64,000 bases of DNA from Promethearchaeota archaeon (GTDB lineage: Archaea > Asgardarchaeota > Lokiarchaeia > Sigyniarchaeales > SOKP01): positions 32,001-96,000 of the forward strand of contig JBHLOY010000003.1 in assembly GCA_048939995.1 (NCBI GenBank), written 5' to 3'. How positions within the stretch are numbered: position 1 is the first letter of the stretch; every line of letters begins with the position of its first letter. The notes under the pieces are model-generated. The model was not told where the DNA came from. It saw only the letters and a list, made by a program, of their open reading frames with translations, and made no database searches. A program made the position numbers and the translations under genes. This document shows positions 32,738 to 48,899 of the stretch, one piece after another.

Positions 32738-33019
32738 ATGGACTTTTTCTTGAAAAACTTAAGGGAAACTCTTCATGCTATTAATAAATTAATCGATAAT
32801 AATGTGAATATTGTAAATACTAAAAGAATAAGAAGATGTAACAATATTAAGTCATCTAATCGCTCTAAAATTAACTTTATATGGCGTTCATTAAACTATC
32901 TCGAAAAAGAAGGCATATTAGAGATTAATGGTTCTTATAGTCCGAAAACATATAAAATTGTAAGCGAAAAAATAAATATCGATAAGTTAATGACTCAAAT
33001 TGAGAAACAAAGATTCTAG
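32738..33019 (+). CDS. Small basic hypothetical protein, probably winged-helix DNA-binding
   Basis: WRSLNYLEKEGILE...PKTYKI helix-plus-wing pattern. Confidence 0.55.
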   Translation: MDFFLKNLRETLHAINKLIDNNVNIVNTKRIRRCNNIKSSNRSKINFIWRSLNYLEKEGILEINGSYSPKTYKIVSEKINIDKLMTQIEKQRF

Positions 33020-33023
33020 GAGT

Positions 33024-35756
33024 TTAGATTAAGTTTAATTGATTTAGTAAATCATTTAATTTTTGTTTATTTTCATGATTGTCTGGATCTTTTATTAGTC
33101 TTTTTTGATAAAAAATAACATTACCATATTTTAATTCAATATTATTAAATCTTTTAACCCATGACATAAATTGGTCTAAATAATCTTGTACTTCGGGATC
33201 ATTTTCAAATAATTTGATTTCTTCTCTTTTTTGACTTGCTGCAATCATACGCTTATATTTTTTCAAATTATATCCTTGCTTTTTTAATAATTGAATATTA
33301 GCTCTACGTATAAAAGCTTCTATACCGCTTCTCCACCTAACATATTGCTCATTAATTCTATCAATTGTCTCTTGAACCATCTTTATTTCTTGTGGAAATA
33401 TGGTAGTTTTATTTTTAGTCAGAATCTTCTTAATGACTTGAAATTCGGTACTAAAAAAGCTAATATAATTGCTTATCATTTTCGCAAATTCATCTAATAC
33501 AATATTATAATCTTGTTCGAATAGAACTTCAAAACTAGAAAATGTAAGATTTTTTTTATCGAATGTTCCCTTTATTTTCCTTGTGTTGAGTAAATCCTCT
33601 GTAATTAAACATAGTAATTCAATTTCTTTTTCCATTAGTTCTTTCCCATAAAAAAGGTCCTGAAAAGAAAAACTATAGCTATTTTGAAATATTAGTTTTT
33701 CAATTCCTTTTTGGGTGTAAAATCTTACTTTTTCACCATCATCATAAAAAATTCCTTTAATTTTTTCACTATCCTGCAATTCAGTTAGTAATTCTTTAGT
33801 CAAACTCGATGTAGTATCTATATCTTCTAGAGAAATATAATCTTGTGATATTGCTTTATCTATTAAAACATTTCTTAATTCCTTTTCTGCGTCTTTTATC
33901 TTATTTTCATTAAAAATTAAAGTATCTCCTCTTTTTAAATATCTTAGATCTAATGAGTGTAGAAATTCAAAAAAAGCAGTTTCACTCATTCCAGTTTTAT
34001 CGAGATATTCTCTAATAATTAGCTGTTCTTGCTGTTTTATTTCATCTCCAATAAGGCGAAGGTTTTCATCAATTTTATTTAAAATAAGATCTTCATGAAT
34101 ATTTAATTCTTTTGATAATTCTGCTATTTTAAATTTCCTAATGTCAAGATCATTGATTTGATTTATTTTATCTATCTTCTCATTTACATATTTTGAGTAA
34201 TAAAATCTCTCTCTATCATTATTAAATATCCCGCTTCTGGAATCAACGATCTTATCCAAAACATCAACTAATAAAACTTTGCCAATATTCAACCTGCCAG
34301 ATATTATTGGGATAGAAAAATAACCTAAAATTTTAGAATCTTCAATTTCCTTTTCGATTTTTAAAAATCCTAGATTAGTTAGTAGCATTGTTCCCTTGCG
34401 GTAGTTTGTTAGATAATCTTTAGGAAGATTTTTTATTAACTTAATAAAGCTTTTATTGGTTAAGATCTCACGATAAGGTCTCAAATCAACGGTATTATCT
34501 TTTGCTGCTTTAGAATTGATCTCTTGTGTAATAGTTTTTAATGAATAATATGCTGTTGCATCCTTTCCTAATAAAAATTGTTTCTTGCCCGAGAAAGAAA
34601 TATCTTTAACAATTTTCTTTATTAAGGTACTTGGTAAATAATCAAATTTATTAATATATAGGATTCCGTTATCCTTTATTTGCTTTTCAAACTCAGCTCT
34701 CAAATAATTATATGGATAAAAATAACCTAAATCTGAAAAATAGCCCTTGATAACTTTTAATTTAATCAATGATTTCATAACTAGATTTAATTCAGAATCT
34801 GATTCAATAATATATAAAAAATCATTAATTGATTGACTTGAAACTCTTCTATTTTGCTCAAAAAAATCAATCAATTTTGATTTCTCAAGTTCATAAAAAA
34901 AAGTTCCATTACGTTTCTCACTTTTGATATAAAAATATACTTCTTCGTCTTTAAATTTGGATTTCTTTATATTTTCTATAAAATCCTTTAATCCAATTTT
35001 ATGTTTCTCACTTAATTCTTTAATATTATATTTTTTTAAGATTATTTGAGAATTAACTATTTCAAAGATTTTATCAAAATCCTTTCCTTCATAATTTAGG
35101 GTTCTTAGAGGATCATAAAGTATCTTACATACTGCTATTAATTGATTATAAAGATTAGGGTGCATCTTTTCTCCTAACTTTGAAAATATCCTTATAAATA
35201 TTTGTTTAAAGCAAAAAAGTTCATTAAAGTGAAAATCCTTACAATTACTTAGAAAAACTAATAAAGAATAAAGATTATCATTATTTTCTTCAATTGAAAG
35301 AGCATTTAAGATATCTTCTTTATAATCACATAGTACTTGGGGTTGTTTTTTTATAATCTCTTGGAGAAAATAATGAACATTATCCCTTACATCTGAATTT
35401 TTCTCAATCAAAGCTTTGGTGAAATGCGATATACTCTTTTTGATGTACTTGGAATCATTTAGCATTCCAAATCCTAATATAATTATTGAATTCAACATTA
35501 ATTCTGGTGAACTTAAAAACTCATGGATTTTTTCTAACAAATCATCAGAAATATAATTAAAATTATTTTCTGCTAAGACACTTAAAATATAGGTTATTAA
35601 AATCCTATTATCTTCTTGTTCTAAGAGAACATTTAAATCTTTTATGATTTTATGAACTTTTTCAACCTTATTTTTATTCAAATACTTATTTAGTTTCCCA
35701 ACAATATTTTCTAGAATTTCATTTCCCTTAAAATCCTCCAAATTAAACATAATCAT
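33024..35756 (-). CDS. HEAT/ARM-repeat protein followed by tandem winged-helix (PCI-like) repeats
   Basis: HEAT-like N-terminus (DVRDNVHYFLQEI); repeated L..xIKGxF motifs (VIKGYFSDLG, KIKGIFYDDG, KIKGTFDKK). Confidence 0.6.
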   Translation of the reverse strand: MIMFNLEDFKGNEILENIVGKLNKYLNKNKVEKVHKIIKDLNVLLEQEDNRILITYILSVLAENNFNYISDDLLEKIHEFLSSPELMLNSIIILGFGMLNDSKYIKKSISHFTKALIEKNSDVRDNVHYFLQEIIKKQPQVLCDYKEDILNALSIEENNDNLYSLLVFLSNCKDFHFNELFCFKQIFIRIFSKLGEKMHPNLYNQLIAVCKILYDPLRTLNYEGKDFDKIFEIVNSQIILKKYNIKELSEKHKIGLKDFIENIKKSKFKDEEVYFYIKSEKRNGTFFYELEKSKLIDFFEQNRRVSSQSINDFLYIIESDSELNLVMKSLIKLKVIKGYFSDLGYFYPYNYLRAEFEKQIKDNGILYINKFDYLPSTLIKKIVKDISFSGKKQFLLGKDATAYYSLKTITQEINSKAAKDNTVDLRPYREILTNKSFIKLIKNLPKDYLTNYRKGTMLLTNLGFLKIEKEIEDSKILGYFSIPIISGRLNIGKVLLVDVLDKIVDSRSGIFNNDRERFYYSKYVNEKIDKINQINDLDIRKFKIAELSKELNIHEDLILNKIDENLRLIGDEIKQQEQLIIREYLDKTGMSETAFFEFLHSLDLRYLKRGDTLIFNENKIKDAEKELRNVLIDKAISQDYISLEDIDTTSSLTKELLTELQDSEKIKGIFYDDGEKVRFYTQKGIEKLIFQNSYSFSFQDLFYGKELMEKEIELLCLITEDLLNTRKIKGTFDKKNLTFSSFEVLFEQDYNIVLDEFAKMISNYISFFSTEFQVIKKILTKNKTTIFPQEIKMVQETIDRINEQYVRWRSGIEAFIRRANIQLLKKQGYNLKKYKRMIAASQKREEIKLFENDPEVQDYLDQFMSWVKRFNNIELKYGNVIFYQKRLIKDPDNHENKQKLNDLLNQLNLI

Positions 35757-38288: not shown

Positions 38289-38699
38289 ATGAAAGCACAA
38301 CCACCAGATGATAATAATTTTGAAACATTAAAACATAAAATTGGATTTGGTATTAAATTTTGGTTAGAGTTTCAAAATAATAAACGAAAGAATATTCTAG
38401 GCTCGGGGTGGGCAAAATTACTAGATAGTATAAATGTAACTCAAGAACAAGAACCTAAGTCTTTAACAATAGCAGCAAAAGAATGTGGCTATTCCTATAA
38501 ATATGCTTGGAATATATTAAAAAGGATTGAAAGAAGAACAGGTATGGCCCCCGTATTAACAGGAAAAGGAGGTGCTGGTGGTGGAGGGTATGTAATATTA
38601 AATAATTGGGGTAAATATTTGCTAAAAACTTATAAAAATTTGTTATACGAGTTGCAAGAGGTTGAAAAAAAGCTTGAAAAATCCTTTAAAATAACATAA
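38289..38699 (+). CDS. ModE-type winged-helix transcriptional regulator (no TOBE domain)
   Basis: SL..AAKxxGxSYxxAW, GGxGGG wing. Confidence 0.85.
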   Translation: MKAQPPDDNNFETLKHKIGFGIKFWLEFQNNKRKNILGSGWAKLLDSINVTQEQEPKSLTIAAKECGYSYKYAWNILKRIERRTGMAPVLTGKGGAGGGGYVILNNWGKYLLKTYKNLLYELQEVEKKLEKSFKIT

Positions 38700-39361: not shown

Positions 39362-40888
39362 ATGGCATTACCTCTATCGGGAACACCGATAATTCTTGAT
39401 ATAGGATCAGCTTATACAAAGGTTGGATTTGCTGGAGAACCCAGTCCTAGGTTTGTTTTTCCCACAATAACCGGCACAGAAAAGTATAAAGCCGTAATGG
39501 TTGATGTAAGTGCGAGGAACATATATGTGGGAAATGATGCTGCAAAAATGAGGGGTGTTTTAAAGATAAAACGTCCGATAGAGAGGGGAGCAATAATGGA
39601 TTGGAATGATTATTACGAAATTCTAAATTATTGTTTTTATTCTCTTCTAAGAATACCTGATCTTTCTCAATACCCTGTTTTATATACTGAACCTCCATTT
39701 CTACAGAAGGAAACCAAAGAATATATCGCACAAGTTCTATTTGAAACACATCGTGTACAAAAATTAATTATGGTTCCCACACCCATTTTATCTATATTTA
39801 GCGTGGGATTAACAACTGGTTTAGTAGTTGAAGGTGGAGATGGCATAACTTGGGTTTGTCCAATAATTAATGGACAAATCATTGATCAGACAGTGCAAAA
39901 ATTAACCTTAGCAGGTACAGATGTTAACCAGTATCTGAAAAACCTATTAATGCGAGAAGGGATTCATATCGAATCCAGTGCAGTTGATGAAATTGTTAAG
40001 GATATAAAAGAACGTAATTGTTACTTTGTTTTAGATCCAAAAAATCCCCCAAAAAAGGATGAAAAGTTTAAGACTGTCATGCCAGATGGCTCTACCCTAA
40101 GTGTTCCACATTATATCTTTCATGAAGCACCTGAGGTATTATTTCAACCAAGCCTAATAGGATATCCGATTAATAATATTCCTCAAGCTATTATAACTAG
40201 TCTTAAAGGAATTGATAAATATTATTGGAGTGAGTTATTATCTCATCTTGTCTTATCAGGCGGTAATCTATCTTATTCTGGTTTTGAGGAAAGATTAGGC
40301 CTTGAATTATCAAGTTTAATTCCCCAGTTGGGAAAGATTCCTAAACCAAAACAGGAAAAATCTACAACTAAAGGAAAGGCTCTATTAAAATCTGTTGAGG
40401 GAATGAAGAAAAAGCAAGATACTTGTCCACATTGTGGTACAATTGTAGATTTATCTGATGATAAAGAAATATGCCCCTCATGTGGAGGCAGAGTCGTTTT
40501 ACCAGAACTTACAATTAGTTTAAATAATTCAAATAAAAAAGCACCTCTTATTGCGGGGAAACTCTTTTGTCCTCACTGTGAAAATAGCATTACCGATTTA
40601 TCCTCAATATTTTGCCCTTATTGTGGAAAAAGTGTTGAAACTCTTGATACTAAAGGAGGTTCAAAAAAAACAATTGATTCACCACCTCCTGCTAAGGAAT
40701 TTGCTGGTTTCTATGACCCATCTGAAGAGATATTAAGTTTCTTTGTACCTGACAACCTTATGTATGCAATTTTCAACGGTGCAGCGATTCTAGGAACACT
40801 CCAGTCTTTTCTGAGATTGTTTATTACTCAAGAGCAATTTCTTTCCAATAAAGATCTTTTATATAAAGATATAAGTGAAATTTTTTAG
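39362..40888 (+). CDS. Actin-related protein (Asgard Arp) with inserted double zinc ribbon
   Basis: DIGSAYTKVGFAG, PRFVFP, PVLYTEPP, TTGLVVEGGDG, LAGxD, IKE, PDG, APEVLFQP, VLSGG; insert carries four CxxC. Confidence 0.93.
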   Translation: MALPLSGTPIILDIGSAYTKVGFAGEPSPRFVFPTITGTEKYKAVMVDVSARNIYVGNDAAKMRGVLKIKRPIERGAIMDWNDYYEILNYCFYSLLRIPDLSQYPVLYTEPPFLQKETKEYIAQVLFETHRVQKLIMVPTPILSIFSVGLTTGLVVEGGDGITWVCPIINGQIIDQTVQKLTLAGTDVNQYLKNLLMREGIHIESSAVDEIVKDIKERNCYFVLDPKNPPKKDEKFKTVMPDGSTLSVPHYIFHEAPEVLFQPSLIGYPINNIPQAIITSLKGIDKYYWSELLSHLVLSGGNLSYSGFEERLGLELSSLIPQLGKIPKPKQEKSTTKGKALLKSVEGMKKKQDTCPHCGTIVDLSDDKEICPSCGGRVVLPELTISLNNSNKKAPLIAGKLFCPHCENSITDLSSIFCPYCGKSVETLDTKGGSKKTIDSPPPAKEFAGFYDPSEEILSFFVPDNLMYAIFNGAAILGTLQSFLRLFITQEQFLSNKDLLYKDISEIF

Positions 40889-41011: not shown

Positions 41012-42112
41012 TTGAGAAGTAAATTACGGAGCTTGGCAGTAATAACTGTGATTTTTTCATTATTCTTAATAATGCTTCCAACGGTTTCAGCAAAAACTAG
41101 AGAGAGTTATTTAGTTGATTTTTTATATCAAAATTATGATGAAAACAATAATTTTGGTAATACTTTTGAGGATACCTTCTTTGCCTTAGAGATAATCGAT
41201 TATTATAATTTATATTCCATTCCTGTATTATTTGGTACTGAAGACAAAATTGATAAAGCTACATTTATTGATCATTTAGAATCTAAAGTAGAAGAAATGT
41301 TTGATGATGACGATGTTAACCTCTACGATTTATCTAATATCTTAGCTTCACTAAATATCTTAAACGGAATAGCATCATTAGACTCAAACTATAAACTCAA
41401 AATTTATAGATATATTAACCAAACTGTACAAACATACGGTGGATTCTCGATTACAAATTCATCTACAGCAGTGAATCTAATCTCAACATTTATTGTATAT
41501 AATATCTATACATTGATAGGTGAACCTATAGTTAATCAATCACGCCATATAAACTGGATTCTTTCTTGTAATAATACTGATGGTGGTTATGGAGGTAATC
41601 AGACTTTACCCTCAACAATCTTGACAACGTATTATGCAATATATTTAATCAATGAATTTTCTTCTCTTCTCGTTAACGAGACCGCAACTTCAAATTATTT
41701 AGTCTCATTCTTTAGTAGTGATTCAAATGATCAAGTTAATTATGGAGGTTATTTTCCCAGTCAAATAGCAGATAACACTTTATTGAGTAGCACTTATTAT
41801 TGCGTTAATGCGATAAATTTAATTGATGCATCGGAATTAAATCCTAGTTTAACAATAAGTTGGATATTAGCACGTCAAAATATTCAAGATGGTGGATTTA
41901 TAGATGATCCAACAGCTCAAGGCCAAGGGGATTCCTCAATTGCAGCATCTTATAATGCGTTTAAAGTATTACAAGTGTTAAATGCATTAAATTATCTCAA
42001 CCAAGATGTCTTCATGGTCGAGTTTAACTATATTGTTTTAATTGTATTATTATCAGTAATAGGAATAATAGTTATAATTATTGTATTTGTTTGGAAAAAA
42101 AGAAAAATTTAA
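41012..42112 (+). CDS. Secreted, C-terminally anchored prenyltransferase/squalene-oxidase-repeat protein
   Basis: Signal peptide ending VSA; repeats WILSCNNTDGGYG and WILARQNIQDGGF; C-terminal TM plus KKRK. Confidence 0.78.
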   Translation: MRSKLRSLAVITVIFSLFLIMLPTVSAKTRESYLVDFLYQNYDENNNFGNTFEDTFFALEIIDYYNLYSIPVLFGTEDKIDKATFIDHLESKVEEMFDDDDVNLYDLSNILASLNILNGIASLDSNYKLKIYRYINQTVQTYGGFSITNSSTAVNLISTFIVYNIYTLIGEPIVNQSRHINWILSCNNTDGGYGGNQTLPSTILTTYYAIYLINEFSSLLVNETATSNYLVSFFSSDSNDQVNYGGYFPSQIADNTLLSSTYYCVNAINLIDASELNPSLTISWILARQNIQDGGFIDDPTAQGQGDSSIAASYNAFKVLQVLNALNYLNQDVFMVEFNYIVLIVLLSVIGIIVIIIVFVWKKRKI

Positions 42113-42232: not shown

Positions 42233-43090
42233 ATGGAAAAAATTCTTGACGGTAAAAAGTTAGCAGAAAAACTCAATTCTGATTTGAAATCAAAAATATT
42301 AAATATATATACTGAAACAGGAATTAAGCCAAAATTGGCAGCTATTTTAGTAGGTGAAGATCCAGCTTCTGAAATCTATGTAAATATGAAGCGAAGAAAA
42401 TGCGAACAAGTTGGTATCGAATCAATATTAATAAAGCTAGATAGACAAATTTCAAAAGAAAGAATATTTAGCGAAATAGATAAATTGAATAATGATGAAA
42501 CTATCCATGGGATTCTTTTACAAATACCTTTACCTGAAAAGTTCAAAGAGATTAAATCAAAAATCTTAGAAAGGATTTCTCCCCTTAAAGATGTGGATGG
42601 TTTTAATCCTATTAATAAGGGGATGCTTTTTGATTATGAAGAAGAATTAGCACCATGTACCCCAAAAGGTATTATTGCTTTACTTGAATATTATAATATC
42701 ACAATACAAGGTAAAGATATAGTAATCGTAAATCGTTCTAATCTTGTTGGAAAACCTCTTATTTTTATGCTTCTTAAACGGAATGCAACTGTTACGATAT
42801 GTCATACTTCTACTAAAAGCATTGAAAACCATATGCAAAGAGCAGATATATTAGTAGTAGCTGTAGGAAAACCTAAATTTATCACAAAGGATAAGGTAAA
42901 AGAAGGTGTTATTATTATCGACGTGGGACAGAATAGAGTTCAAGGGAAGTTGTATGGTGATGTTGATTTTGAAGATGTATATGAAAAATGTGGTGCAATA
43001 ACACCAACGCCAGGAGGAATTGGACCTTTAACTGTTGCTTTCTTACTTCAAAATACTTTTATTGCTTATAAAAAACAATTAAAAATTTAA
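42233..43090 (+). CDS. folD: Methylenetetrahydrofolate dehydrogenase/cyclohydrolase
   Basis: ILDGK, YxxxK, GILLQxPLP, KDVDG, PCTP, RSNLVGKP, TPxPGGxGP. Confidence 0.96.
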   Translation: MEKILDGKKLAEKLNSDLKSKILNIYTETGIKPKLAAILVGEDPASEIYVNMKRRKCEQVGIESILIKLDRQISKERIFSEIDKLNNDETIHGILLQIPLPEKFKEIKSKILERISPLKDVDGFNPINKGMLFDYEEELAPCTPKGIIALLEYYNITIQGKDIVIVNRSNLVGKPLIFMLLKRNATVTICHTSTKSIENHMQRADILVVAVGKPKFITKDKVKEGVIIIDVGQNRVQGKLYGDVDFEDVYEKCGAITPTPGGIGPLTVAFLLQNTFIAYKKQLKI

Positions 43091-43689: not shown

Positions 43690-44892
43690 ATGAGTTCAAA
43701 TATAGGTCCAGAAGCACAGGCAGCTTATCAAAAATATCTAGATGCTACCTCTTTAGAGGAAAAAATCAAAAAATTGGAGGAATTTATTTCTTTAGTACCA
43801 AAACATAAAGCCACTGAAAAGATCGTAGCGTTGAATCGATCCCGCCTTGCAAAGTTAAAAAGAGAGCAAGAAGAACAAAGAATTAGACAAAAAACGACAG
43901 CTAAAGTAATAAGCCCATTTTCCATTAAAAAAGAGACGATTCAAATAATCTTGATAAGTGACTATTATACTCCTGGTGCGGGTAAAACTTCACTATTGAA
44001 TTTTTTAACGGGAGCAGCAGAAGAGAAAATAGGGAAATTTACTGCATTACCCGAAATTGGTATCTATGAATATGATAAAATACGATATCAAATAGTCGAT
44101 ATGCCTTCGATAATGGAAGGTGCTTCTAATGGAATTGGCAATGGTAAAGAAATACTTTCTCAATTAAGATCATGTGATTTAATATGTTTTTGTATTGACT
44201 TATCTCGCGAATATGATTCTCAGATAAAATTATTATTAAGTGAGTTAAATAATGCAAATATTCGTTTAAATTTACCTCCACCACCAGTTACAATAGAAAA
44301 AACAGGTTCAAATAAAATACAAATATTCTTTCTTACTCCAGATGCAAAAGAATCTGATGAATTTCTCGAATTAACCGAAAGGATAAAGGAAATTGTCGCT
44401 GCTAGTGGTATTAGAAATGCTATAGTAAAAGTTTCTGGTGAGATAACGCTAGATCAAGTAGTCGATGCATTAAATCCGTCTGTTTCATATAAGAAAGCTA
44501 TAATTATCGGGACAAAGGGTGATTTACCTGGCACAAAAGAACAATTTGAAAAATTGAAGAAATCATATTTAGATAAATTTCCAGCAATAATTGGATCTAG
44601 CATACCTAAAAAAGAATTCCCAGATAATTTTGGAGAAATTATATTAAATATTCTTGGTAAAATCAAAATTTATACGATGAATAAAGGAGAAGTTGCTGAA
44701 AAGCCATTAGTGGTAGATTCAGAGCCAAATATGCCTAAAATTAGAGATATTGCATTAAGAATACATAAACGCTTCTATGATAAATTTGATCATGCTGTTG
44801 TAATTAGAGAATCAGAACGTCAAAAAAGAAAGAAAGTTGGGTTAGATTATGAACTAAAAAATAATGATATTGTAGAGTTATTTACTAAGTAG
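43690..44892 (+). CDS. DRG/OBG-family GTPase with C-terminal TGS domain (degenerate G-boxes)
   Basis: PKHKATE N-terminal DRG motif, GAGKTS, EGAxxGxGxG, TKGD, TGS (IH...VGLDYEL..DIVE). Confidence 0.85.
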   Translation: MSSNIGPEAQAAYQKYLDATSLEEKIKKLEEFISLVPKHKATEKIVALNRSRLAKLKREQEEQRIRQKTTAKVISPFSIKKETIQIILISDYYTPGAGKTSLLNFLTGAAEEKIGKFTALPEIGIYEYDKIRYQIVDMPSIMEGASNGIGNGKEILSQLRSCDLICFCIDLSREYDSQIKLLLSELNNANIRLNLPPPPVTIEKTGSNKIQIFFLTPDAKESDEFLELTERIKEIVAASGIRNAIVKVSGEITLDQVVDALNPSVSYKKAIIIGTKGDLPGTKEQFEKLKKSYLDKFPAIIGSSIPKKEFPDNFGEIILNILGKIKIYTMNKGEVAEKPLVVDSEPNMPKIRDIALRIHKRFYDKFDHAVVIRESERQKRKKVGLDYELKNNDIVELFTK

Positions 44893-47563
44893 GAGAAGGA
44901 TTCCGTATTTTTTCTATAATATTAGGTATTTCTTTTATTTGATCCTCATATAATAAATCAAGTTTAGGAATTCCATTTAAAATATTCAAGATACTCTCAA
45001 ATGAATAGATTAAATTTTCTAAATAATCTACTATATCACCTTTAAATATTAAAATTTTATACTCCTCTTCAAAAATTCTGCTGATCTCTTCAACTGAGAG
45101 ATTATCATCAATTCTAAAGGATAATAACATTCGCTCTAAATTTTTTCTCCCGCAATCACAATAAGGATTATCCTTACAGCCACAATTAAAGATTTCATTT
45201 ACCCATTTTGTAATAAAGTCAATGAATTCATTTGAGAATTTTTTTCTTTTTTTTACATAATCTGCATCCATTAATGATAAGACACTTGAACTGAAGAAAT
45301 TATTACTAAAATATCTCATATTAATATTTTTTGATAAATCTGATACAACTTTTTTTGATAAGTAGACATTCTTTAATGGTTTTAATTCGAGCACGATATT
45401 TATGATGCTCTCAGCCTTTAGTTTTAAAACATCAATAATTTCTAAACTCTTTTCAACCGTTAAAAATGATTTGGAAATTGCCTGTCCTAATTGAGTAGTA
45501 GAATAAATTGAATTATAATCTAATATAATTAATTTCAATTTCATTAACTTTTTTAGTAGTAATTCAACTTCATAATCTGAATTAATTAAGTATTTATTAA
45601 ATTCATAGATACTATTTTTTGGAGTTCCCTCGTTAAACATTGAAATAAACCCAAGTAATTCTGTCATTGATTTATCTTCATTTGGCTCTAATTCAAAGTC
45701 TTTTATCTTCCCATTTAATAGTTTGATAGCTATATTCTCTTCAGTAATTTTCATTTTAGGAACATAAATCTTTTCAGGTTCTACAAGAAGATATGCATAA
45801 CCGATATCATGTTTCCCTAATCTTCCTGCTCGGCCTAACATCTGTTCAAATTCTGCCACCGTCAAAACTTTAATTCCCATTGCTAAAGATTCAAATATTA
45901 CTTGCTTTGCAGGGAAATCTACTCCTGCAGCTAGTGCAGCAGTAGCTACAACAGCTGAAATTTTCTGATCTTGGAAATCCATTTCAATTAACTTTCTTTC
46001 TTCACTAGTTAATCCTGAATGGTAAGCTCTTGTTTTGATCCCCTTTTTATCTAGGAATGTGGCTAGCGACTCACACTTTTTCCGAGAATTAGTAAAAACT
46101 ATAGATTGCCCTCTAAATCCATAACTAGATCTCTCGGAAAATGCAGATTGAACCAGTTTTATTATGAATTTATGCTTTAGGGTTTCATTTAAGCACAAAA
46201 TTAAGTGGCGTTCAATAGGGACAGGTCTATTATTATATTTAATTAATGTTCCATTTAGCTTTTTGGCTAAAAGTTCTGGAGCTCCAATTGTAGCGCTTAA
46301 ATATAAAAATTGCACATCCTTACAAATCACTTTCAACCTTGCTATTAATCCATCTAATAGATATCCTCTATCCAAATCGGTTAATACTTGAATCTCATCA
46401 ATTATTATTGTACCTATATCCCCCAATAAACCTTTATTTCCACTCCTTAACAAAAAATCTATAGCTTCATAAGTTGCAATAATAATATCGGCATCAACTA
46501 ATTCCTCTAAATTAAGAGTCTCTGTTTTATCTAATAATGATTCTCCAATTTTTTTTATTACCTTCAAACTTAAGGCTTTATATTTTATCTCGAATTCTTC
46601 TGTTCTTACATTTGCTAAAGCTACAATTGGAACTAAATATAACATTTTAAGCTTTTTTGTTAATACTTTTGAAATTCCAGCAATTTCACCAATTAAAGTC
46701 TTGCCAGAAGATGTAGGTGCCATAACTATTTGATTTTTATTATCACTTAACAGCCCTTGTTCAATTGAGATAGCTTGAATTGGCAGTAATCTGTAAATTC
46801 CCTGTGCTTTTAATATTTCAATTAACTTCATTGGTATAGAGACATTATCAAAATGATAATTTAAGTATTTTTTATTCAGAGAAGGACTTTTTTCAATATC
46901 GTACAAAGTAGTCTCTTTATTTTTGACTGGATTAAAATCTAGTTTAAAAGAATTTAGGACTTTATCAATGTTTTTAAATTTTAAAATCATATGATTAAAA
47001 AAATTTTTTAGCTTTGGATTAACTTTCTCGGTTGAAATTAACCCAATAAGTCTTGCTTGACCTAAAACAAGTTCTAAAGCACAATCAGAGCATACAATTT
47101 GATTTTGGCTTGATTTAATTTGCTGATTTTTATTTAGGATATTAAATTCTTTCCTATCTAAACAAGTTCTACAAAATGTTAAATTAATTATTTTATCATT
47201 ATTAACTTGGAAACTATTTAACATTTTTCGAATTTCTCGATAATATTTTGGATCAGTTTGACTTGAGAACGCTACAAATTGATTTTTCTCAGATTTTAGA
47301 AACTTTTTGAAAACTTTTGGATCAATAGGTTCTTTATCGCCGCCCTTTTGTATCTTCAAGAAAGATAGTGGACGAAACTTGTTTTTAAAATCTAAACCAA
47401 AAAGTAGTATACCTCTAAAAAAAGGCTTTCTAACATAAGTGATTGAGTGAGTCTTCTTGTTGAAAGATTTTAAATAAAAAAAGTTAATATTAAAACAGTT
47501 CTCTTTCTTACTTTCCAGATTTTTATCTAACACAATAAAGAACTTTCTATTGATAACACTCAA
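44885..47563 (-). CDS. Archaeal superfamily II DEAD/DEAH helicase (COG1202-type)
   Basis: LLPIQ, PTSSGKT, DEIQ, LSAT, YHSGL, AAGVDFPA, QMLGRAGR, C-terminal CxCxxxPYCxC. Confidence 0.9.
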   Translation of the reverse strand: MSVINRKFFIVLDKNLESKKENCFNINFFYLKSFNKKTHSITYVRKPFFRGILLFGLDFKNKFRPLSFLKIQKGGDKEPIDPKVFKKFLKSEKNQFVAFSSQTDPKYYREIRKMLNSFQVNNDKIINLTFCRTCLDRKEFNILNKNQQIKSSQNQIVCSDCALELVLGQARLIGLISTEKVNPKLKNFFNHMILKFKNIDKVLNSFKLDFNPVKNKETTLYDIEKSPSLNKKYLNYHFDNVSIPMKLIEILKAQGIYRLLPIQAISIEQGLLSDNKNQIVMAPTSSGKTLIGEIAGISKVLTKKLKMLYLVPIVALANVRTEEFEIKYKALSLKVIKKIGESLLDKTETLNLEELVDADIIIATYEAIDFLLRSGNKGLLGDIGTIIIDEIQVLTDLDRGYLLDGLIARLKVICKDVQFLYLSATIGAPELLAKKLNGTLIKYNNRPVPIERHLILCLNETLKHKFIIKLVQSAFSERSSYGFRGQSIVFTNSRKKCESLATFLDKKGIKTRAYHSGLTSEERKLIEMDFQDQKISAVVATAALAAGVDFPAKQVIFESLAMGIKVLTVAEFEQMLGRAGRLGKHDIGYAYLLVEPEKIYVPKMKITEENIAIKLLNGKIKDFELEPNEDKSMTELLGFISMFNEGTPKNSIYEFNKYLINSDYEVELLLKKLMKLKLIILDYNSIYSTTQLGQAISKSFLTVEKSLEIIDVLKLKAESIINIVLELKPLKNVYLSKKVVSDLSKNINMRYFSNNFFSSSVLSLMDADYVKKRKKFSNEFIDFITKWVNEIFNCGCKDNPYCDCGRKNLERMLLSFRIDDNLSVEEISRIFEEEYKILIFKGDIVDYLENLIYSFESILNILNGIPKLDLLYEDQIKEIPNIIEKIRNPSPT

Positions 47564-47939: not shown

Positions 47940-48899
47940 ATGCCAGATGTAAAGATCAAAACTCCTAATTTGGATGATATATTTGAGAAATGGAAACAAA
48001 GTGCTGTAAGGAAAGATCGAAAAAGAATGGAAAAACAATTTGGTACAAAAGGTGCTGTGTTTTCTTTAGATGCCATATCTGCTGCCGAATATGTTAAAGA
48101 TACAATGAAGGAGGCTGCAATTTATTTTGCAGTTAAAATGACTCTTGGAGCTGCGCCAAAAGGAAAAGAAGAACATATCCTATTAGCTCCTAAATTACCC
48201 AGAGAATATTTTTATTCATTTAAGGGATCAGAAAAGGTTAATAAGGATAATTGGAAGGGAGATGAATTGGTACCTATGTATGAATCGATTCAACCGATAT
48301 CATGTAAAAATTGCGGAGGAAAGGGATATATTGATGGCAAATGTAAAAATTGTAATGGTAGTGGTAAAATCGAAGAAAATATTGTTGTTTTTATCGGGGA
48401 AGAGCAAAAGAAAGAAAAGAAACCCTTCTCCTATTCATGTGTTGCGTGTTATGGTACGGGAAATCGAAGGGAGCCTTGTAAAGAGTGTGGTGGGCATAAA
48501 AGTTTATATAAGTATGAGATTCTCCCTGTTCCTTTTAAAACAGTAGTTACTGGGATTCCAATACTTCATAGTAGTGCCCAAACTAAATATGAAAAAGAAA
48601 TGGGAGAGGATCTTCATAAAATGCTTGAAGATGTAGAAGGAATTAAGTTCAGTGAATTCAAAGAACTAGAGTCGAAATCAGAAGCTTCATTGGGGTATTG
48701 GAATAAAAATATAAAAAAAACAATTAACTCAGCAGGCAATGATTATAAAACTTATCAAAAAGATAAAGATACACAAATTACTACCCAGATTTATCTTTTT
48801 CCTCTTATCCAAATGTTCTGCGAGACTAAAAAAGGAAAAAAGTTCGAGATCTATAGTTTAGGCTCAGCAAATAAATTTATGATTTACTCAAACTTCTAA
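47940..48899 (+). CDS. DnaJ-type CxxCxGxG zinc-finger protein without J domain, SSUH2-like
   Basis: CKNCGGKG, CKNCNGSG, CVACYGTG, CKECGG; no HPD motif; beta-rich C-terminus. Confidence 0.7.
   Translation: MPDVKIKTPNLDDIFEKWKQSAVRKDRKRMEKQFGTKGAVFSLDAISAAEYVKDTMKEAAIYFAVKMTLGAAPKGKEEHILLAPKLPREYFYSFKGSEKVNKDNWKGDELVPMYESIQPISCKNCGGKGYIDGKCKNCNGSGKIEENIVVFIGEEQKKEKKPFSYSCVACYGTGNRREPCKECGGHKSLYKYEILPVPFKTVVTGIPILHSSAQTKYEKEMGEDLHKMLEDVEGIKFSEFKELESKSEASLGYWNKNIKKTINSAGNDYKTYQKDKDTQITTQIYLFPLIQMFCETKKGKKFEIYSLGSANKFMIYSNF

Follow-up and report, generated by a model that had tools for sequence, protein, structure and literature searches.

What does an actin-like protein do when its sequence is interrupted by two zinc ribbons, in a genome that also encodes Lokiactin? 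The question is raised by one gene in the window (the whole 64,000-nt stretch of DNA analyzed here, to which positions refer unless another locus or contig is named). The gene occupies 39362..40888 on the + strand, as defined by ORF, Pfam, alignment and fold model. Its 508-aa product is here called ZR-ARP, an actin-related protein with a zinc-ribbon insert.

The first-pass annotation had read a clear actin fold in this ORF and had proposed structure prediction as a check, and both the sequence comparisons and the model agreed with it. Pfam Actin matched residues 8-324 (E 4e-65), HMMER aligned the protein with actins at residues 4-323 and again at 458-494, leaving the insert as the gap between, and the top PDB match was the Asgard actin 9wc4 (E 2e-72; aligned over 4-323 and 461-494). 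The AlphaFold model (pLDDT 74.8) was matched to actin over its full length by Foldseek, with TM 0.83-0.88 by target length. The actin core, delimited by the Pfam match and the alignments, comprises residues 1-324 (39362..40333, +; actin 1 to ~324), and the alignments resume with the C-terminal actin part (40727..40885, +; actin ~327-375). The phosphate-1, phosphate-2 and adenosine motifs together with this fold place ZR-ARP in the actin/ARP branch of the actin superfamily. A MAFFT placement of the insert start on actin 328-350 was rejected, as HMMER, the model and conservation all put that segment at residues 458-494. A scan for sigma-70 promoters and terminators, using a model unsuited to archaea, gave no excess over shuffles.

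The insert had been annotated at ~40330-40730, and the model and alignments located it at 40334..40726 (+). It comprises 131 aa (residues 325-455) in the actin 322-326 loop, a loop of the barbed face, and its linkers were modelled with low confidence. Both annotated ribbons were found: CPHC/CPSC (C355, C358, C371, C374; 40424..40483, +), which is present in every member examined, and CPHC/CPYC (C403, C406, C418, C421; 40568..40624, +), which is missing in the genus of L. ossiferum and in family f32. All eight cysteines were invariant among 121 close homologs of ~508 aa, and in shuffled inserts even one ribbon pattern arose in just 0.4% of trials. DZR and zinc-ribbon models of Pfam matched residues 355-425 with 33.8, 32.2 and 27.9 bits against cut-offs of 27, 27.3 and 25 (PF13240, PF13248 and PF12773), which assigns them to the prokaryotic zinc ribbons. 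The ribbons have the pattern of prokaryotic zinc_ribbon_2/3 and DZR and are of the generic prokaryotic type, but unlike free prokaryotic ribbons they sit within an actin fold. When the insert was modelled alone, two ribbons formed at pLDDT ~75 with their relative position unfixed (pTM 0.26); they are predicted to be separate modules on flexible tethers rather than a single compact domain. In the full model, strands were predicted at both ends of the insert (327-329 and 447-450), in stretches that are conserved, and these may make a stalk.

An assembly artefact, or absence of the insert from orthologs, had been foreseen as an objection, and neither stands. Contigs of other runs crossed both insert junctions without joints, and the insert was present in 31/31 diverse aligned members, with a length of 96-209 aa and one or two ribbons. 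A profile search detected ZR-ARP in 143 of the 154 genomes of the source order of Lokiarchaeia, including all four families, and in 0/7 genomes of other Lokiarchaeia orders; one extra match (4e-81) was at the level of Lokiactin. The top matches in the remaining classes that were sampled were actins of ordinary length and ZR-ARP was not found there, and the searches revealed no other actin with a zinc-ribbon insert outside the source order. A related-locus search returned, besides unrelated bacterial ribbons, two orthologs, one of them from H. repetitus FW102. Shorter forms were for the most part fragments from short contigs or entries labelled partial, and a stand-alone insert family was not found among them. 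ZR-ARP is a genuine Lokiarchaeia-specific actin-related protein, and a literature search, largely outside subscription papers, found no description of its architecture or of its insert. Its detection in one order alone makes a lineage invention likelier than an ancestor of a eukaryotic system.

The ribbons had been proposed to bind ubiquitin or nucleic acid, among other partners, and so to couple actin to those systems. C4 ribbons of similar size do occur in such proteins, and ribbon 1 weakly resembles Nop10 (E 0.009 in a PDB search). The ubiquitin-binding finger NZF carries Thr-Phe after the second Cys and a 10-residue spacer. In the ZR-ARP ribbons this Thr-Phe is absent (G-x or K-K stands there), the spacers are 12 and 11 residues, and no NZF-type Pfam model matched. 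Searches of the PDB with the insert, by fold and by sequence, returned nothing at E 0.001. The Lys/Pro-rich linkers noted earlier are indeed seen in the window protein (K+P 0.40/0.18/0.26 vs 0.12 in the core), but those of other families are acidic; since the insert is basic in some orthologs and strongly acidic in others, it is unlike a conserved nucleic-acid binder. The C-x2-C-x11/12-C-x2-C-G pattern was found in 22 proteins of the source genome, 10 of them with predicted membrane helices, and at least 21 proteins besides ZR-ARP have like ribbons. No ribbon partner was found, and a specific ubiquitin or nucleic-acid link was not borne out. Such a link is the least probable of the readings considered here.

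The nucleotide site combines conserved binding residues with altered catalytic ones. D11, G13, K18, G156, G158, D184, E214, G301 and G302 were invariant in the ZR-ARP alignment, K213 was nearly so, and D154 was mostly E; as the pocket is kept, ZR-ARP likely binds ATP. The replacements Q137 to T and H161 to W, which had been claimed from manual alignment, were recovered as T140 (39779..39781, +) and W164 (39851..39853, +), and the sensor H73 is replaced by R75 (39584..39586, +; R in 31/31). Q137 and H161 were invariant in 29 Asgard actins, whereas position 137 was S, T or A and never Q in the 31 ZR-ARPs. Position 161 is W in the source family and T, S, N, F or Y outside it, with H in 2/31, including L. 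ossiferum. In a published actin study, Q137 and H161 place the attacking water. With Thr at position 137, yeast Arp4 binds ATP without hydrolysing it (PMC3510490). The loss of Q137 and the non-hydrolysing Arp4 with Thr at this position suggest that hydrolysis is impaired in ZR-ARP.

The two longitudinal faces of ZR-ARP have diverged very differently. In F-actin, subdomains 2 and 4 bind subdomain 3 of the neighbour on the pointed-end side, through the pairs R39-D286, K61-E167, R62-D288 and D244-R290, while M44 occupies the Y143/Y169 pocket and the 243-245 loop contacts 322-325 (PMC12674126, PMC7247010, 10.1101/309534). On the donor side, subdomain 2 with the D-loop (residues 40-66; 39479..39559, +), placed by alignment, keeps the pointed-face contacts K39, Y40, M44 and R62 in actin numbering. 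K39, R62 and D244 were kept in 31/31 members and M44 in 29/31. The acceptors on the barbed face were mostly lost: D288 remained in 2/31, R290 in 1/31, E167 in 3/31, Y143 in 1/31, Y/F169 in 0/31 and D286 in 19/31. In the window protein the W-loop is degenerate (39866..39877, +), with I169, N170 and Q172 for actin Y166, E167 and Y169, and so is the 286-290 segment (40214..40228, +), with Y287 and W289 for D288 and R290.

At contacts named in the literature, the match to Asgard or eukaryotic actin was 0.61 for the donor face vs 0.19 for the acceptor face (Mann-Whitney p 0.005, an optimistic value because part of the alignment had been viewed before the faces were chosen and because adjacent positions are not independent of each other). 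At positions conserved in at least 90% of 29 Asgard actins, ZR-ARP matched at 0.92 on the pointed face and 0.22 on the barbed face, against a background of 0.53, and so lacks the two intact faces of conventional actin. A wider contact set, not limited to positions named in those papers, gave 0.56 vs 0.26, seen in both sub-groups, and 0.27 for lateral contacts. Eukaryotic actin, Arp1-like proteins and the second Loki ARP, used as controls, were without such a bias. As judged from these residues, ZR-ARP retains the pointed face of actin and has lost its barbed-face and lateral contacts, and it probably does not polymerise by itself. Sequence gives good support to the initial proposal of an Arp that does not polymerise or is slow to hydrolyse ATP, as Q137 is missing in 31/31 and the F-actin salt bridges have lost their acceptor sides as well. 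We consider it likely that ZR-ARP is both non-catalytic and non-polymerising.

These observations may reflect a role at filament ends. Our main reading, to which we give a probability of about 40%, is that ZR-ARP would be a scarce, ATP-binding, hydrolysis-impaired and non-self-polymerising chain terminator of Lokiactin barbed ends, whose ribbons recruit a partner. It would add like a monomer to the barbed end through the D-loop and the 243-245 loop, and, once docked, would present no site to the next subunit, so that growth stops. The outward-facing insert, with its ribbon or ribbons on flexible tethers, would then bring in a partner protein to position or stabilise the capped end. The first-pass annotation had suggested that the protein caps, nucleates or tethers filaments; of these, barbed-end capping fits the surface pattern best, whereas Arp2/3-like nucleation fits poorly because it requires an intact barbed face. 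As the lateral contacts are degenerate, one longitudinal contact may be too weak for capping. The kept residues K39, Y40, P243 and D244 are also kept in the other ARP and may be structural, and subdomain 2 is poorly modelled in ZR-ARP (pLDDT <50).

ZR-ARP could instead form a specialised slow-turnover filament of its own, with re-wired contacts and zinc-ribbon decoration. The D-loop is of full length and the 243-245 loop is kept, the substitutes on the barbed face are fairly conserved (W289 25/31, F146 29/31), and Q137A actin was still able to polymerise in a published actin study. This reading is highly unlikely: R62 and D244 are without counter-charges within ZR-ARP, an insert of 96-209 aa lies beside the 322-325 contact, and lateral contacts are degenerate and abundance is low.

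Abundance was taken from L. ossiferum. One of its three "ARP" homologues, UYP44711.1, was transcribed several-fold below Lokiactin (PMC9834061). Both published qPCR primers match the ZR-ARP ortholog in the L. ossiferum genome (G303) exactly, which identifies UYP44711.1 as this ortholog. PMC9834061 was the sole paper found that names UYP44711.1, and its accessible parts deal with tree position and transcript level alone, leaving the insert, ribbons and residue changes unmentioned. The L. ossiferum protein has one ribbon and keeps H161, whereas the window protein has two ribbons and W. Its two downstream neighbours have masses of 31.95 and 41.90 kDa vs 31.93 and 41.88 for GNAMCCOK_01003 and GNAMCCOK_01004; since these masses agree and the offset of 0.02 is the same as that of Lokiactin, we infer that the ortholog is GNAMCCOK_01005. 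In the proteome, GNAMCCOK_01005 was detected in 16/16 columns with an average of 16.1, vs 21.7 for Lokiactin (10.1101/2025.11.30.690169). If these are log2 values that can be compared from one protein to another, the ortholog would be about 50-fold scarcer than Lokiactin, and this low abundance suits an end-binding regulator.

Co-IP with Lokiactin (Supplementary Table 2 of 10.1101/2025.11.30.690169, sorted by ratio) enriched five gelsolins and one profilin. GNAMCCOK_01005 was absent among the rows listed, which run from a ratio of +10 to -1.06, with 841 rows further down. Its absence from the enriched rows listed counts against stable Lokiactin binding, although the low abundance weakens this point. 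GNAMCCOK_04250 (20.6 kDa), GNAMCCOK_04085 (56.4 kDa) and others, which are outside the proteins named in that paper, showed enrichment equal to that of Lokiactin.

The co-IP result leaves some room for a monomeric scaffold in the manner of Arp4/Arp8, acting off Lokiactin filaments, which would use its pointed face to bind a different protein, perhaps the second ARP in a self-limiting heterodimer. Like ZR-ARP, Arp4 has Thr at 137, Arp8 has Arg at 73, and both carry large inserts and are non-polymerising (PMC3510490). With its non-catalytic residue 137 and kept ATP pocket, ZR-ARP shares the combination typical of these proteins, and by analogy it would be most like an Arp4-type ATP-bound scaffold in its working. 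The likeness is at residue level: zinc ribbons are undescribed in nuclear Arp4/Arp8, and the Arp8 inserts lie mainly at the D-loop and hydrophobic plug, covering the pointed end, whereas the pointed face of ZR-ARP is intact. The D-loop of ZR-ARP also closely matches that of Lokiactin, which argues against a scaffold away from the filament.

The heterodimer variant depends on the other actin paralogs. Four actin-family genes were found in the source genome, namely Lokiactin, ZR-ARP and two further ARPs. Trees were built with the insert removed, by a quick method, and included actin and Arp1-like proteins as eukaryotic rows, with Arp2/3 and Arp4-10 absent. This phylogeny, also proposed beforehand, separated ZR-ARPs from Lokiactin. 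They formed one clade (SH-aLRT 100) with a long stem, outside Lokiactins and eukaryotic actin/Arp1. Their sister was unsettled under the mixture model and was the second Loki ARP under LG+G4, a join that is possibly long-branch attraction. A union with Lokiarchaeial Lokiactin was rejected (p-AU 0.0016 under LG+G4, where long-branch effects are possible). The second ARP, of the UYP44126.1 type, retains barbed-face residues complementary to those of ZR-ARP, with Y143, D286 and R290 in 17/17 and D288 in 16/17, and is without M44 and R62. At E 1e-100, five ZR-ARP-carrying genomes of f31/f32 gave no match to it, although these genomes are incomplete. With the possible long-branch artefact and these five genomes without a match on one side, and the complementary residues and missing co-IP enrichment on the other, we regard the scaffold, alone or as a heterodimer, as possible but doubtful.

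Several further observations were made on the paralogs. A clean mirror-image face pattern in the second ARP was considered and rejected, as it was not significant overall. The second ARP is encoded at L002:1480-2595 (-), on contig C6 of genome G000. A proline-rich protein of 165 aa, encoded two genes upstream (L002:3486-3983, -) and without Pfam or NCBIfam match, has a C-terminal tail that is WH2- or VASP-like by eye. The two are a possible nucleator and activator pair. The third and most divergent ARP (L004:1483-3405; G000 C28:213953-219107) lies in a four-gene block that also occurs in L. ossiferum and includes a 249-aa protein without Pfam match and a protein of ~860 aa. In f31/f32, more divergent actin paralogs of 376-392 aa (L169, L172, L173, L175) show ~26-31% identity to ZR-ARP.

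The genes around ZR-ARP suggested another function. In two families, a ModE-like regulator (38289..38699, +) is the neighbour upstream of ZR-ARP at most loci. The next gene (41012..42112, +) encodes a protein with a signal peptide, an alpha-alpha toroid and a C-terminal membrane anchor, and is followed by FolD (42233..43090, +), kept in the block in 19/21 loci. The toroid ortholog GNAMCCOK_01004 had a value of 21.5, near the 21.7 of Lokiactin and among the most abundant L. ossiferum proteins (10.1101/2025.11.30.690169), and is a candidate major surface protein. ZR-ARP might be a membrane tether between the actin skeleton and this cell-surface protein. The toroid gene follows ZR-ARP in 27/28 loci across four families, and similar ribbons are often attached to membrane proteins in the source genome. 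Between families, however, gene pairs remain together anyway in 31% of cases when adjacent (35/113) and in 44% when co-directional (28/64), and FolD and the ModE-like gene share the block. The toroid protein has a predicted cytoplasmic tail of just 4-6 residues, is ~40-fold above ZR-ARP in L. ossiferum and was unenriched with Lokiactin (ratio -0.02). Because of this background, the abundance gap and the lack of enrichment, the neighbour is a weak lead, and a tether of this kind is distinctly unlikely.

Other genes were also seen near ZR-ARP. A protein of 910 aa whose HEAT-like (Cnd1) match is weak (33024-35756, -) and a 93-aa ORF (32738-33019, +) were nearby in 10/21 loci. A DEAD-box helicase with DUF5814 (44885-47563, -) and a protein weakly matching a DnaJ-type zinc finger (47940-48899, +) were nearby even in L. 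ossiferum.

Compared with known systems, ZR-ARP shares the fold, D-loop pattern and nucleotide pocket with Lokiactin and actin (PF00022; PDB 9wc4 "HC1 actin") and is 37% identical to the Lokiactin of the source genome. It differs from Lokiactin in the replaced Q137, H161 and H73, the lost barbed contacts, the 131-aa insert and its own clade. Arp2 and Arp3 keep Q137/H161 and a working barbed face (PMC9894260), and ZR-ARP is without either. On these sequence features, ZR-ARP is not Lokiactin and does not resemble Arp2/3. ARPC4 and p34-Arc models (PF05856, PF04045) had no match in four genomes, where the positive controls were also unmatched. The insert of Arp2 in the actin 322-326 loop, stated in the first-pass annotation, was confirmed; this insert (residues 322-332) binds ARPC5 (PMC9894260) and may serve as a precedent for partner binding by the insert of ZR-ARP.

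ZR-ARP is near-universal in one order of Lokiarchaeia, and its ortholog is expressed as protein in cultured L. ossiferum; its detection in one order alone limits its importance. Published Asgard actin regulation consists of profilins and gelsolins, and ZR-ARP concerns the paralogs beyond Lokiactin. From the one-sided conservation of its surface follows a directional prediction, namely that it binds barbed ends and blocks growth, which is testable by standard actin assays. A wider and rather unlikely scheme is that Lokiarchaeia built a filament-end machinery from half-functional actin paralogs. ZR-ARP would end barbed ends and the second ARP, which keeps mainly the barbed face, would act with it in bounding Lokiactin filaments or in forming a mini-filament of defined length, and the ribbons would connect the barbed end with a partner. 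In this scheme ZR-ARP would be a barbed-end capper derived from actin itself, evolved apart from capping protein and gelsolin. If the directional prediction is true, archaea would control filament ends through sub-functionalised actin copies, in parallel to the eukaryotic ARPs.
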